Part shown: positions 1,491 through 7,083 of the stretch, piece by piece
Layout: every line of letters starts with the position of its first letter
Position numbering within the stretch: the first letter of the stretch is position 1
Sequence record: JN673056
Reading direction: 5' to 3' (one strand)
Length of the DNA: 64,000 bases
From: Escherichia phage PhaxI
Notes under the pieces: generated by a model
What the model saw: only the letters and a program-made list of their open reading frames with translations
What the model was told of the DNA's origin: nothing
Database searches by the model: none
Program-made: the position numbers and the translations under genes

Positions 1491-2553
1491 TATCGAGGCG
1501 CTCCAGCATATCTGCAGGCATAACCGAACTCTGAGAGATACCGAACATGTTGTTCACATCGTCAACAAAGTCTGGGTTTTCCAGCAGCGGATACCAGAAG
1601 TCATCCCCCAGCTCTGCCTTACGATATTTCTTTTCTTTTTCTGGATCAAACCCGCCTTTGGCAGTGCGTTGATACCAAGAACCACTCACCAAATCCACAT
1701 ACCCCAGCATGCGCGCAATTTCTAACATACCGGACCAACGGTCAATACCGCCTTCATACAACACAGTGACAGGGAACTTGGCTTTTTCACGGACAAAGCG
1801 GCCTTTCATAATGTTGACTGTAAACTGCCATCCCAAAAGGTCTTTGTCTTCTTTAACTTGAGAACGCGTGATGAACCACAATTGGTTAGAAGACAGGAAC
1901 CCCTGTTTACCGCCTTTGATGTTCGGCTCGGCGTATTGGTTCCCGATTTCATCATAGTACGAGTTGATCCATACCAAAACGAATTTCTTTTCAGTGACCA
2001 ACGGGGTGATAACACGCCAAAAACTATTGAGAGCGCGAGCGCGGGTCATATCTTGCGTGTCTTTGCCCGCGATGGCATCATCAACTTCTTTGGTAGACGG
2101 CAACTGGCTGATTGAGTCAATGAATACGATGATCTTGTCACCTTTCTGTGCATCGTTCAGAAGCTGTGTCAGCTTGATCTTCGTCTTTTCAACGTTTTCA
2201 ATCGGCAGATACAAGACACGGTCCATGTCAATACCCATAGATGTCCAGTAGTTTTCATTCGCACCGCCTTCTGAATCCGCGAAGATACAAATTGCATCAG
2301 GAAACTTATCCATGTAAGCCTTAACATCCACCAGCCCAAACATGGTTTTGAATGTACGAGAATCCCCCACCAACTGTTTGATGCCTGATATCAGACCACC
2401 ATCAATACGACCGGACCAGGCCAAATTCAGAATAGGAATACCCGTACTGCAAATAATGTCAGGCTTCAGCGCATCGGTCTTTGACAGCACTTCGGCATTC
2501 GGGTCCAGTTTCTTTGCTGTCTTGAGCATGCGAGCCATCAATGAATCGGCCAT
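1468..2553 (-). CDS. uvsX: UvsX RecA-like recombinase
   Basis: 361 aa; RecA-fold core with P-loop-like VGDSRTFKT and C-terminal RecA-like region; synteny with 41. Confidence 0.85.
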   Translation of the reverse strand: MADSLMARMLKTAKKLDPNAEVLSKTDALKPDIICSTGIPILNLAWSGRIDGGLISGIKQLVGDSRTFKTMFGLVDVKAYMDKFPDAICIFADSEGGANENYWTSMGIDMDRVLYLPIENVEKTKIKLTQLLNDAQKGDKIIVFIDSISQLPSTKEVDDAIAGKDTQDMTRARALNSFWRVITPLVTEKKFVLVWINSYYDEIGNQYAEPNIKGGKQGFLSSNQLWFITRSQVKEDKDLLGWQFTVNIMKGRFVREKAKFPVTVLYEGGIDRWSGMLEIARMLGYVDLVSGSWYQRTAKGGFDPEKEKKYRKAELGDDFWYPLLENPDFVDDVNNMFGISQSSVMPADMLERLDNVIKTTE

Positions 2554-3068
2554 TTCGTTTCCTCTTGCTTGTTGATCGTAATTAATAAATCGGTGCCCAA
2601 GACTTTCTTGGACAATATATTGATTGCTTCATGAATCGCCATTATTGACGGGAGTTTTTCATCGTTAATTTCGGAACCCCCGCGTTCTGTTAAATACATA
2701 TTACGCAGACGATTGTGCTGTGCCCTGTTGACACAAGAAACATTCAATGCGATATTCAGGATATACATCATTTGTTCAGTTGTAACATCCTTTGGAATAG
2801 CATGAACATAATATATCGCATCTTCAAAATAGATATGCTGTAATGACTCTGGAATTTCTTCCCCGCCAAAAGCAAAATCTTCAATGCGTTTAAAAAGTGT
2901 TTCCGGCTCTGGTGTTGTAATATGTTGCGTTACAGTAGCCGCACCATCTGGTTCTTTGTTGAATTTGGTCGCGATAACGACATGTCTGCCAGGTTTAATA
3001 AACTCAGCAAAGTTCTGTGCCATTTGCGGGGCGTGTTCCGCGTAATATGATACGACGACTGTAAACAT
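2538..3068 (-). CDS. Hypothetical protein
   Basis: 176-aa ORF tightly packed between uvsX and the pyrophosphatase gene; no motif recognised. Confidence 0.45.
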   Translation of the reverse strand: MFTVVVSYYAEHAPQMAQNFAEFIKPGRHVVIATKFNKEPDGAATVTQHITTPEPETLFKRIEDFAFGGEEIPESLQHIYFEDAIYYVHAIPKDVTTEQMMYILNIALNVSCVNRAQHNRLRNMYLTERGGSEINDEKLPSIMAIHEAINILSKKVLGTDLLITINKQEETKWPIH

Positions 3069-3613
3069 TAGAACTCCAGAGTCAAAGGGGTTTCCGCGGA
3101 CTTATCATAGTTCGCACCGCCAGCAGCACGTAGACGATTGCGATCGTTCTTGCGCTTGTGGGCCAGCATGTAGGTCTCAGCATCCAGCCCCAAATATCCG
3201 CAAGCCGCTGCCAAGAAGGTAGCCAAAACATTCCGAAGAGGGTGTGACATGAAATACGTGAACAGTTCAGTCACTTTCCTGAGGTCGTGAGGGGTTTGAA
3301 TTGGCTGCGCCTGAACGAATCTCACCATTTCGGGAATATCGTGTGGTTTGTCTTCCTCCTGCAGGACAGCACAGAGCATGAAGTGAACAACGTCCACCAA
3401 CTCGTATATGGCATCCACTTGTCGCCAATGCTTACCACCCCCATAGATCTTCCAGTCTATGGTTGTTTCGTCTAGAAACTCTGCCCACTCACGATAGATG
3501 GAGTTTGCTATCGCCACTTCGGTCCAGCGCTTCTTCCACTCTTCCCCAAAATAGGCCACGTTGGTGGCCTTTTGAAGTTCGAGCAGACTTTTAATATGCT
3601 CTGCTGTGATCAT
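3068..3613 (-). CDS. All-alpha NTP pyrophosphatase (dimeric dUTPase/dCTPase-like; possible T4 gp56 analogue)
   Basis: 181 aa; LLELQKATN...EEW...REWAEFLDE...VDVVHFML pattern typical of dimeric dUTPase/dCTPase/MazG-like enzymes; abuts the dNMP kinase gene. Confidence 0.5.
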   Translation of the reverse strand: MITAEHIKSLLELQKATNVAYFGEEWKKRWTEVAIANSIYREWAEFLDETTIDWKIYGGGKHWRQVDAIYELVDVVHFMLCAVLQEEDKPHDIPEMVRFVQAQPIQTPHDLRKVTELFTYFMSHPLRNVLATFLAAACGYLGLDAETYMLAHKRKNDRNRLRAAGGANYDKSAETPLTLEF

Positions 3614-4194
3614 TTCCGATCCCTATAAAATTTGACGAACGGTTGCCAACCTTCAAACGGATTGACAAATTCATAATCAACTTCCATCTTATCAATGAAA
3701 GCCTCAATGTCATCCTCTATGATACCACCGCGATCCGCCTTTGAAATGCGGGTGATGGGACATTTAGTGCTCAGCGCCCATTCATATTCCTGAGGGGTGC
3801 GCAAATCACTCACGATATAATGAACGTGTGGGTTCTGTTCCACCAAAGGAAGTTGATATCGTTTAAAGAATGACAGAAACAGGTCTGGTTGTACGTAACG
3901 CAAGCCCGTATCGCTGCCGAGATGAAGCCAGATCTGCCTTGGGGTTAATCCCTTGGGGTTATCTGGGTGAACATATGGCAAGTCCTTGATGTCGTCCTCC
4001 ACCTCCGCTGGTAGCCATGGGTAGATGAAATTGGCGACACGTCGCAGTTCATCTGAGAAAGACAGACGACGAATATCCTTATCACCCTGAATATGATGAA
4101 ACCTGATCAGGGACTCCAAACAGAAGTCCTTGCCGGAGCGCTTGCGCCCCGTGAAGAATTCAAGGTTCTGGTACATCATTCGCCATACCCCCAC
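3610..4194 (-). CDS. Deoxynucleoside monophosphate kinase (T4 gp1-like)
   Basis: P-loop TGRKRSGKDF near the N-terminus, as in T4 dNMP kinase (VKRSGKD); 194 aa. Confidence 0.6.
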   Translation of the reverse strand: MGVWRMMYQNLEFFTGRKRSGKDFCLESLIRFHHIQGDKDIRRLSFSDELRRVANFIYPWLPAEVEDDIKDLPYVHPDNPKGLTPRQIWLHLGSDTGLRYVQPDLFLSFFKRYQLPLVEQNPHVHYIVSDLRTPQEYEWALSTKCPITRISKADRGGIIEDDIEAFIDKMEVDYEFVNPFEGWQPFVKFYRDRK

Positions 4195-5219
4195 ATAAAT
4201 TTCTGATCAACAGGGGAATGTAGTAATGCAGTACGAAGACCGTCATCAGCGATACGGCGTTTGTCAATTTTGGTATCATTGAGTCGACACCACAGGCAAT
4301 ATGACATATCCATCATCAATCCCGTGTCTGCTTGATATCCTTTCAGATGTTCTCTGATTTTACCAAAATCACTGCCGATGTCACAGTGATGTAACACGCC
4401 GAGGAATAGATTACAAATATCTTTTTGGGACTTCACTTTTTCTGAAGAGAATTCCAGCAAAGAATTATACATCCCAGAAGAAGTTTTGGTCTTCTTAGTG
4501 ATACCCCCGAGTTGTTTCCGACTAACTTCATTGTTGTAATAATGAAGATTGTTAGAAAACAGTTTGTAATACCCAACTTCGACATTCAGCACTTTCGCCA
4601 GAACTTCTTGCAGGATAGAGAATTCAATGAAATTGATTGAACTCATGCCCCACAAGACATCTTGGCTGCGGTTAATGACAGTGATATTCAATCGCCCTTC
4701 TGTTATACTGAACAATAGAGCAAGATTACAGATCATGTCCTTGGTCTTGGCTTCTCCAGTTTCACTATGGGTGGCCAAACCTTCATCTGAGTCCAGCGCC
4801 GGATCATAGATGGTGAGATACGCCTGACGGGTGTTGGGATTATTACGCAGACGGCTGATGACACTATCCAACTGGCCATTATTGTACAGACGTGGGCCAT
4901 ACGCGCCTCGCCAGGTTACACCGTCATCAGAGAAGTTGGCGGCGCGGGGTAAGACTTTCGAAAGGAAACGGATATCATTACGTCCGGACAACACCCAGAA
5001 TGTCTCACCGATGGCAGCAATTGCCGACGAGTTGCGGCCTTCAACGGAAAGCCAACGGTCACGTGGATCTGATACTGTAATTGTTACACCATCAATGAAA
5101 CGAGTGCCGTCAGTGTTAATCTCTGCGTTGCCAGGATCTGACTCAATGCCGTGTTCACGGATGGCCAACACAGCCTTCTTCAGCATATCATTATTGTTTA
5201 AAGCAAAAATTTCCATCAA
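4176..5219 (-). CDS. Thymidylate synthase-family enzyme (deoxypyrimidylate hydroxymethylase/methylase-like) with a C-terminal extension
   Basis: 347 aa; TS-like blocks ETFWVLSGRND, TRQAYLTIYDP, candidate nucleophile Cys in DMICNLALLF followed by RSQDV...SSINF (aligns by eye with TS PPCH...RSCDV...PFN); about 100 extra C-terminal residues. Confidence 0.6.
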   Translation of the reverse strand: MMEIFALNNNDMLKKAVLAIREHGIESDPGNAEINTDGTRFIDGVTITVSDPRDRWLSVEGRNSSAIAAIGETFWVLSGRNDIRFLSKVLPRAANFSDDGVTWRGAYGPRLYNNGQLDSVISRLRNNPNTRQAYLTIYDPALDSDEGLATHSETGEAKTKDMICNLALLFSITEGRLNITVINRSQDVLWGMSSINFIEFSILQEVLAKVLNVEVGYYKLFSNNLHYYNNEVSRKQLGGITKKTKTSSGMYNSLLEFSSEKVKSQKDICNLFLGVLHHCDIGSDFGKIREHLKGYQADTGLMMDMSYCLWCRLNDTKIDKRRIADDGLRTALLHSPVDQKFMWGYGE

Positions 5220-5890
5220 TCAATACTCCCAAAATCACGATTGAGAAACGCAAAAACAGCCTGCTCTATAGTCAGGCCATTGGACTTCATCATACCTGCG
5301 GGAACGGTAGGGAACAAGCCTTTATGCCGTTGGCGGTGGTCATGAACTCTCTCCCACTTCTCGACCACCAGGCTTTCATTGAAGTCTGCGCCGCCGTTGC
5401 GTGATTTCACACGGGAAACACAGGTTTCAAGCGGGGTGTCCATGAAGAGCACGACTAATTCGCGCGGTGGGCGCGTCAGGCGGGGAATCCATGAGCTGAG
5501 CAAAGTTGAAGGGATGATTCCTTCAAACAACACGTCATATTTCAGATATTCCGGCTGATCAGCAATGGACAAGGCGAACAACATCTGCTCGGTATCTTTC
5601 AGGGAATCAACACCTTTAGACTTAGACTTGTCATATTTACCAATACAGATAATGTTATAGGAAGGGCAAACTGTGAGCATGATCTTGCCATTGTAGGTCA
5701 CGACATACGCCTGAGGATCATTCTCCGCCAGATAGGAAGGGACAGTGGACTTGCCGCTACCGTTGGAGCCTTTAACGTAATACAACTCTCCTCGTGCCGG
5801 ATATTCCCCTTCGACAGCAGGTGGTTTTACAAACAGATGTACGGGGCGCTTCAACAACCCTTTGAGCGAATACGACATGGTGTGCTCCAA
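5216..5890 (-). CDS. P-loop kinase (nucleotide or polynucleotide kinase-like)
   Basis: Walker A GSNGSGKST at residues ~42-50; 224 aa; ATGA-type overlap with the TS-family gene. Confidence 0.5.
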   Translation of the reverse strand: MEHTMSYSLKGLLKRPVHLFVKPPAVEGEYPARGELYYVKGSNGSGKSTVPSYLAENDPQAYVVTYNGKIMLTVCPSYNIICIGKYDKSKSKGVDSLKDTEQMLFALSIADQPEYLKYDVLFEGIIPSTLLSSWIPRLTRPPRELVVLFMDTPLETCVSRVKSRNGGADFNESLVVEKWERVHDHRQRHKGLFPTVPAGMMKSNGLTIEQAVFAFLNRDFGSID

Positions 5891-5950
5891 TAAACAAAAG
5901 GAGCTGCTATTATAGCAGCCCCTTCATCTATTGAATGCTTCTGAGTTAAA

Positions 5951-6910
5951 TTACGCAGCAGCTTTCGCTTCGGCCAACGCCTGAGGTAGCCATTCGTTGA
6001 TAGCCTTTACCAGAGATTCAGCGTCAGTTTCTTTGATTTTCTGACGCTTGGTGAATGACTTACCATTCACATACAGACTGAAACCCCAGCCGCCGGAAAC
6101 GATAGGCGCCAGATCAACATAGGTGTTAGTGCGGGCATGCGGATTGGCTTCGTCTGCCAATTCAGTGACAGGGAACTGGAACCAGCGCATATCAGGGTTC
6201 ACATAACTCAAATATACTTCAGGAGTAACCCCTGCTTCAACCGCCGCCAGGATTGGACCATAGTTAGAAGCACGAGCCGCTTCAACCATTTCTTCACGCT
6301 TGTTATGACGACGCTTGCGTTCTTCGGTAGAAGATGCAGGGCGCATTTCAGAAGATTTCTTGGCCAGAACCGCCTTCGCGTTCGCTAAAGCCTGATCATC
6401 CTTCGGATTTTCAACGTCGGCGATTGCTTCAGCAACGGTTGTGCCCAGCATGCGACGGCGAACTTCTTCAGCACGGGCTTGCGCTTCTTCGTCAAGAACT
6501 TCTTCGCCTTCAACTACCAGGGAAATGGAACCGTCTTTGTTGACTTCAAGAGAACCGTCTTCGACGGTCTGGGAATTTTGATCACCGACAGGTTGCCCAA
6601 CCGTTTCTTCGGCGTCAATCACCGGATTTGATTCACCGTCGCCCTGTTTAACCCCCGCATCTTCGGTCGGTTTAACTTTTTCGGCTTCAGCGCGGTCAAG
6701 AGCTTCGAGAGTTTCTTCTTTCTCTTCCTGGCTCAGACCTTCAATGAGTTCAAAGCCGTTGGCTGACTGGAGGACGCCTTCCATCATACGGCGTAATGTT
6801 ACATTGCCAATGATAAGGTCTGCACCTTTGATTTCTGCTTGAAGATCAGCAGCGGTTTTACCATCAATTTCAAATTTCAGGCCGGACTCGATATGAAGAA
6901 TATAGGACAT
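5951..6910 (-). CDS. Hypothetical protein with a strongly acidic central region
   Basis: 319-aa ORF with an E/D-rich low-complexity middle; AAAGGG RBS upstream. Confidence 0.5.
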   Translation of the reverse strand: MSYILHIESGLKFEIDGKTAADLQAEIKGADLIIGNVTLRRMMEGVLQSANGFELIEGLSQEEKEETLEALDRAEAEKVKPTEDAGVKQGDGESNPVIDAEETVGQPVGDQNSQTVEDGSLEVNKDGSISLVVEGEEVLDEEAQARAEEVRRRMLGTTVAEAIADVENPKDDQALANAKAVLAKKSSEMRPASSTEERKRRHNKREEMVEAARASNYGPILAAVEAGVTPEVYLSYVNPDMRWFQFPVTELADEANPHARTNTYVDLAPIVSGGWGFSLYVNGKSFTKRQKIKETDAESLVKAINEWLPQALAEAKAAA

Positions 6911-7083
6911 AATAAAAACCCTTTTGTGTAGTAACCTTCTTTGGCAGTCTAATGTTCAACTGTGCGTCTGGAACATTAATATACTGCCTTTTTAGAAGAT
7001 GTAAACCACTTTTTATTGAAAAGTTGGTTAACACTTCTGTGTTAGACAACGGAACGCTGTATCAGCGCGGACTGGCGTGAATA

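Follow-up and report, generated by a model that had tools for sequence, protein, structure and literature searches.

Does the thymidylate synthase (TS) superfamily gene at 4176..5216 on the minus strand of a stretch of Escherichia phage PhaxI (sequence record JN673056; 64,000 nucleotides, all of which were analysed and which are called the window below) make thymidylate, or does it make a hydroxymethylated nucleotide? Most GenBank and RefSeq records name the gene 'thymidylate synthase'. From homology, residue identities, fold and gene linkage we infer the chemistry and product of the enzyme: the gene, the orthologue of Vi01_060c 'thyA', very probably encodes the deoxyuridylate (dUMP) 5-hydroxymethylase (deoxyuridylate hydroxymethyltransferase) of a ViI-like Kuttervirus. 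The assignment as a dUMP hydroxymethylase, the role of the gene in the pathway to 5-(2-aminoethoxy)methyl-deoxyuridine (5-NeOmdU) and the kind of C-terminal domain that the enzyme carries have already been described, and the assignment is established in the field.

The gene and its active-site residues

All features described here lie on the minus strand. The limits of the open reading frame (ORF) are 4176..5219, the TTG at 5219 being a mechanical boundary only. Translation probably starts from the ATG at 5216, preceded within GGGAGTATTGATTGATGG by a GGGAG ribosome-binding site, and gives a product of 346 residues, the length of the annotated Vi01_060c. The stop codon occupies 4176–4178. The start ATG and the upstream gene's TGA overlap as ATGA, and the stop codon overlaps the ATG of the next gene in the ATGA at 4176–4179 (GAATGATG). 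With start and stop overlaps at both ends, the gene is coupled in translation to both of its neighbours. The 346-residue protein matched phrog_3676 in PHROGs with an expectation value (E) of 8.7e-183.

Membership of the TS superfamily was established with the PF00303 profile, which matched residues 67–234 (profile positions 53–217 of 266) at 54.4 bits (cut-off 24.3; E = 1.3e-14). The TS fold, the catalytic Cys and the Arg-Ser-x-Asp and His-x-Tyr motifs were all found. The TS-fold catalytic core comprises residues 1–234 (4515..5216).

Residue equivalences were taken from three independent alignments: phmmer against TS chains in the PDB, a family profile of 75 homologues against the PDB, and MAFFT with Escherichia coli ThyA (EcTS) and T4 gp42, the deoxycytidylate (dCMP) hydroxymethylase, whose aligned sequences were those of PDB entries 1AOB and 1B49, residue for residue. 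An initial annotation of the stretch had aligned the protein to TS by eye and had read from this a retained nucleophilic Cys and an Asn at the position of uracil recognition. The strings on which it relied (DMIC, RSQDV and SSINF) are all present in the protein, and both readings were borne out. In all three alignments Cys163 (codon tgt, 4728..4730), the predicted nucleophile, corresponds to Cys146 of EcTS; its equivalent in T4 gp42 is Cys148. Likewise, Asn195 (codon aat, 4632..4634), at the base-specificity position, corresponds in all three to Asn177 of EcTS, to Asp179 of T4 gp42 and to Asp186 of the cytidylate (CMP) hydroxymethylase MilA. The profile alignment thus placed Asn and not Asp at this position, with no shift relative to the alignment made by eye. 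Arg183-Ser184-Gln185-Asp186 aligns with Arg166-Ser-Cys-Asp169 of EcTS, and a one-residue insertion immediately before Asn195 is common to SPO1 gp29 and Bordetella phage CN2.

Residues Cys163, Asp160, Glu71, Tyr106, Arg130, Arg183, Ser184, Asp186, His225 and Tyr227 are invariant in all 75 homologues. Position 195 is Asn in 71 of these and Asp in the remaining four. In a count over 120 homologues, Asp was found at the base-specificity residue in only four.

Probable hydroxymethylase activity and the alternatives

A genuine TS, converting dUMP to thymidylate (dTMP) and supplying the unmodified T of the phage DNA (in ViI DNA, plain T occupies about 60% of the thymine positions), would agree with the superfamily membership, the uracil-type Asn, the retention of all core catalytic residues and the wording of the database records. 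We nevertheless regard this as very unlikely, for reasons that begin at the active site. An Asp three residues before the catalytic Cys is a hydroxymethylase signature, where TS has Leu143 (PMC6400193). The protein reads Asp160-Met-Ile-Cys163 here, aligned with SDFMC in T4 gp42 and LAPC in EcTS, and Asp160 (codon gac, 4737..4739) is equivalent to Asp145 of the T4 enzyme. The C-terminal tail that seals the folate site of TS (as defined in PMC6400193) is missing, and a helical domain stands in its place. The NCBIfam equivalog models for TS (TIGR03284, NF00249x) gave scores that fell short of every cut-off by 3- to 12-fold; the best score was 52.8 against a cut-off of 327 bits, and TIGR03284 scored 33.9 against 108.35. 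The protein is also far nearer to SPO1 gp29 and MilA than to any TS. With phmmer against the PDB, MilA was matched at E = 1e-17 and the best TS at 3e-6; with the 75-homologue profile the values were 6e-49 and 2e-23, respectively. SPO1 gp29, annotated as a dUMP hydroxymethylase, shares 34.6% identity with the protein (E = 3e-27), and M6-like and YuA-like Pseudomonas phages match it at about E = 1e-29, against about 23% identity and E = 1e-4 to 1e-5 for T4-type td proteins. A tblastn search of the window (about 40% of the genome) for a second TS or a dihydrofolate reductase returned this gene only and no FolA-like ORF, the FolA query being an approximate sequence; the gene inventory of phage CBA120 likewise has no dihydrofolate reductase (PMC3184105). 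Finally, CBA120 does not incorporate 3H-thymidine (Kutter, 2011; PMC3184105), and related phages form T from 5-hydroxymethyldeoxyuridine (5-hmdU) after replication.

An enzyme acting on dCMP (or CMP), like T4 gp42 or MilA, would share the Asp-x-x-Cys signature, and the best PDB match is indeed the CMP hydroxymethylase MilA, with which the protein has its C-terminal domain in common. The substrate determinants make such an enzyme extremely unlikely. Asn accompanies uracil substrates (TS and dUMP hydroxymethylase) and Asp accompanies cytosine substrates (T4 dCMP hydroxymethylase, MilA and BcmA; PMC5175136), and the residue here is Asn195, not Asp. By the corresponding rule for the sugar, Lys133' and Ala176 occur in ribose-preferring enzymes and Arg and Ser in deoxyribose-preferring enzymes (PMC5175136); Arg130 and Ser184 of the protein are of the deoxyribose type, instead of Lys and Ala. 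Moreover, CBA120 has no hydroxymethyldeoxycytidine in place of cytosine (Kutter, 2011; PMC3184105), and the modified base of ViI is a thymine derivative. The suggestion in the initial annotation that the enzyme is directed at dUMP (as a TS or a dUMP hydroxymethylase) rather than at dCMP is supported by the profile-aligned Asn together with the rule of PMC5175136.

Assignment as a dUMP hydroxymethylase also agrees with the kinship of the phage and with its gene order. A megablast search with positions 3000–7000 matched 268 phage records, of which the best were Escherichia phage ECML-4 and Salmonella phage Vi01 (a Kuttervirus of the Ackermannviridae), each 96% identical in DNA along the whole of the query. 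Collinearity of the window with Vi01 extends over 33–95 kb of the latter, at a nucleotide identity of 86–93%, and the 346-residue protein is 99.7% identical to Vi01_060c. The genomic link to the 5-hmdU pathway was found as well: the gene lies between those for a PF18748 kinase and a deoxynucleoside monophosphate (dNMP) kinase, with a start–stop overlap at each junction. For CBA120, the 'TS' was reported to group with the dUMP hydroxymethylases of phiW-14, SPO1 and YuA (Kutter, 2011; PMC3184105). 5-NeOmdU has been reported from ViI and CBA120 DNA; it is the base of ViI and is made post-replicatively from 5-hmdU (Lee, 2018; PMC5889632), a pathway restated by Lee (2021; PMC8989533). In Fig. 2 of Lee (2018), the TS homologue beside the 5-hmdU DNA kinase (5-HMUDK) gene is labelled a dUMP hydroxymethyltransferase (PMC5889632).

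Several points weigh against this assignment. The second part of the hydroxymethylase signature, Ser/Thr-x-Tyr (Ser94-x-Tyr96 in T4), is absent: the protein has Gly104-Ala105-Tyr106, and the Ser position is Gly in 56 and Ala in 16 of the 75 family members. Because the Ser is also lacking in SPO1 gp29 (Ala) and CN2 (Gly), this part of the signature may apply to dCMP enzymes only, those on which it was defined. By alignment, two of the four phosphate-binding arginines of TS are missing in the Ackermannviridae clade. The position aligned with Arg21 of EcTS (family motif S-R-N-G) is Gly29; P-G-N-A stands here for the motif, with an insertion of five residues (the EINTD region) after it, the stretch concerned being residues 29–40 (5096–5132). 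Arg127' of EcTS aligns with Gln131. The equivalents of Arg126' (Arg130) and Arg166 (Arg183) are invariant in the family. A conserved Arg39 just downstream might substitute for Arg21, and without the two arginines nucleotides might be bound in a different way. As ViI DNA contains plain T, the enzyme might conceivably have some dTMP-forming activity as well. In our literature search no report was found of an assay or a structure of any phage dUMP hydroxymethylase, Kuttervirus included, so the product of the Kuttervirus enzyme is one that we still infer. Lastly, the evidence for what the C-terminal domain does is a truncation result for MilA that was given as 'data not shown' (PMC5175136).

By analogy with TS and T4 dCMP hydroxymethylase, the dUMP hydroxymethylase reaction would begin with attack of Cys163 on C6 of dUMP. 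C5 would then receive the methylene of 5,10-methylene-tetrahydrofolate, Glu71 and Tyr106 serving as general acid/base residues. In place of reduction by folate hydride, the exocyclic methylene intermediate would be captured by a water molecule activated by Asp160, giving 5-hydroxymethyl-dUMP (5-hmdUMP) and tetrahydrofolate. Asn195 would select uracil over cytosine, and Arg130 and Ser184 would be the residues typical of a deoxyribose-preferring enzyme.

The C-terminal helical domain

The initial annotation had described a C-terminal tail of about 100 residues as unusual, without counterpart in TS or gp42 and with two Cys pairs. The extension is real: beyond the TS core, which ends near residue 234, the protein continues for 112 residues, and the C-terminal regions of EcTS and T4 gp42 are much shorter. 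It cannot be called unusual, however, as it matches the five-helix C-terminal domain of MilA and is present throughout the clade, including SPO1 gp29. Residues 235–346 (4179..4514) form a linker followed by the five-helix domain. An AlphaFold2 model was built with the 75-sequence alignment and had a mean predicted local distance difference test (pLDDT) score of 94.8 and a predicted template-modelling (TM) score of 0.94, with pLDDT values of 97–98 in the tail. Helices were predicted at residues 264–279, 284–292, 299–312, 325–333 and 335–338. Structure comparison of the model gave a score of 33.2 over 302 residues at 2.4 Å for MilA (5jnh_A; 318 residues in the chain), 20–22 over 232–241 residues at about 2.5 Å for bacterial TS chains, and 18.1 over 211 residues at 2.3 Å for T4 dCMP hydroxymethylase. 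The Foldseek query TM-scores were 0.73 for MilA and about 0.52 for TS. As modelled, the tail is the superposable counterpart of helices α9–α13 of MilA and would belong to a known kind of accessory domain. In MilA, these five α-helices are absent from TS and T4 dCMP hydroxymethylase and lie away from the active site; because truncations of MilA were insoluble, its authors proposed a role in folding (PMC5175136).

Possession of the extension is the rule in the clade, in which homologues are mostly 320–385 residues long (383 in SPO1 gp29 and 354 in CN2). Among distant members, identity to the PhaxI protein is 10% in the tail and 44% in the core, and what is conserved in the tail is mainly its hydrophobic positions, together with Gln235 and Ser334. 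A Pfam scan of the isolated tail at E values up to 1 matched no family, and PHROGs gave a weak match to phrog_29844 (E = 7.5e-4), a family without assigned function. In three homologues of 490–594 residues (P0048, P0079 and P0106) the helical tail is succeeded by another domain, about 200 residues long, that has a conserved AYGDSWKRRGE motif and no Pfam match.

The Cys pairs of the initial annotation exist as four residues (268, 278, 307 and 310), none of which is conserved; we take their presence to be an accident of the lineage. They include a CxxC (Cys307 and Cys310), which might suggest a Cys4 metal-binding (zinc) or redox module adding a new function to the enzyme. We give this almost no credence. 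In 20 Ackermannviridae-like homologues, Cys268 occurs once, Cys278 in ten, Cys307 in nine and Cys310 in 15, the replacements being Ile, Leu, Val, Ala, Arg or Gln; outside this group the replacements are mainly hydrophobic, with Arg and Lys also common at 268. All four lie inside predicted α-helices of a well packed bundle, the MilA domain was described as purely helical with no metal mentioned (PMC5175136), and no Pfam domain matches the tail. As the four residues are not conserved, no metal site is supported, and a zinc or redox site was rejected on the strength of unconserved, helix-embedded cysteines.

A functional module of another kind, either a docking surface for the dNMP kinase or the 5-hmdU DNA kinase through which 5-hmdUMP would be channelled or an element ordered by substrate that would hold the folate site open to water, seems unlikely. 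The 112-residue region, replacing the folate-sealing tail of TS, would most likely be structural (in folding or solubility) rather than catalytic.

Gene neighbourhood, proposed pathway and known enzymes

The upstream, translationally coupled gene (5216..5878) encodes the 5-HMUDK and is the orthologue of Vi01_061c; its match to PF18748 (HMUDK_HMUD1; E = 1.7e-116) spans the full profile. In the published comparison the 5-HMUDK gene likewise adjoins that of the dUMP hydroxymethyltransferase (Lee, 2018; PMC5889632). The kinase has a P-loop, GSNGSGKST, and is labelled 'terminase small subunit' in RefSeq and PHROGs (phrog_800), which looks like a propagated misannotation. Just upstream of it lies a 319-residue ORF (5951–6910) whose middle part is long, acidic and of low complexity; Pfam gave no match to this ORF, and phrog_3905, a family without assigned function, matched it over the full length.

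Downstream, and also translationally coupled, lies the dNMP kinase gene (3610..4179; phrog_139 deoxynucleoside monophosphate kinase, E = 7.8e-48; Vi01_059c 'dnk'). Its product presumably phosphorylates 5-hmdUMP, a role proposed by Kutter (2011; PMC3184105). It is followed by a gene for an all-α dUTPase/nucleoside triphosphate pyrophosphohydrolase (3068..3613; PF08761 dUTPase_2, E = 6.4e-9; phrog_173, E = 2.4e-42), which is proposed to supply dUMP and remove dTTP; the dTTPase role is a suggestion only in Kutter (2011; PMC3184105). The last gene of the co-directional block (2538–3068) has a full-length match to PF24021 'Phage ACT-like domain' (E = 2.5e-86) and directly adjoins the gene of dUTPase type, the start codon of the former (at 3068) and the stop codon of the latter having one base in common.

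In the pathway that we propose, 5-hmdUMP would be converted to 5-hmdUTP by the co-transcribed dNMP kinase and the host nucleoside diphosphate kinase and would be incorporated by the phage polymerase. The adjacent 5-hmdU DNA kinase would then start the post-replicative turning of part of the 5-hmdU into 5-NeOmdU. The enzyme would be the entry point of the thymine-hypermodification pathway, by which ViI-like (Ackermannviridae) phages are protected against many restriction enzymes. Such phages serve for typing Salmonella and E. coli O157 and as biocontrol agents against them. No new biology follows from the analysis, and its practical value is one of annotation, with dUMP hydroxymethylase for 'thymidylate synthase' and 5-hmdU DNA kinase for 'terminase small subunit'.

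Distant homologues (about 30% identity; P0114 at loci L006/L007 and P0052 at L008/L009) were found in a conserved gene cluster outside Kuttervirus, which contains a thymidylate kinase, the TS-like protein, HMUDK_hel (PF18723), ACPS, HTH, Peptidase_M78/Inhibitor_I42 and Peptidase_C1. A separation of Asn and Asp variants by gene context was considered and rejected, P0114 (Asp type) and P0052 (Asn type) lying in the same type of cluster. This mixture has no bearing on the Kuttervirus enzyme.

Compared with its orthologues Vi01_060c and CBA120 orf073, the PhaxI protein shows no difference of substance; length and neighbours (5-HMUDK upstream, dNMP kinase and dUTPase-type enzyme downstream) are alike. 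E. coli ThyA has the same fold, and its residues Cys146, Glu58, Tyr94, Arg126', Arg166, Ser167, Asp169, Asn177, His207 and Tyr209 all have counterparts in the PhaxI protein, which differs in having Asp160 for Leu143, Gly29 for Arg21 and Gln131 for Arg127' and in lacking the folate-sealing tail. T4 gp42 (PDB entries 1B5D, 6A9A and 6L18) shares the TS fold, the catalytic Cys, the Asp three residues before it and the lack of a TS-type C-terminal tail, and the same water-capture chemistry is predicted for both. MilA, the CMP 5-hydroxymethylase of Streptomyces rimofaciens (PDB entries 5JNH and 5B6D), has Asp186 for cytosine and Lys133' and Ala176 for ribose, whereas the PhaxI protein has Asn195 and Arg130 and Ser184; identity is about 22% overall and about 7% in the tail. 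SPO1 gp29, a dUMP hydroxymethylase according to Wilhelm & Ruger (1992) as cited in PMC8989533, belongs to the same clade and has in common with the PhaxI protein the specificity Asn with its one-residue insertion, the Asp-x-x-Cys, the FSDDG motif and a long C-terminal extension. Its identity to the PhaxI protein given above is over the core, the C-terminal regions not being alignable by sequence. In SPO1, unlike the ViI-type phages, all T is replaced by 5-hmdU and there is no 5-HMUDK-based hypermodification.

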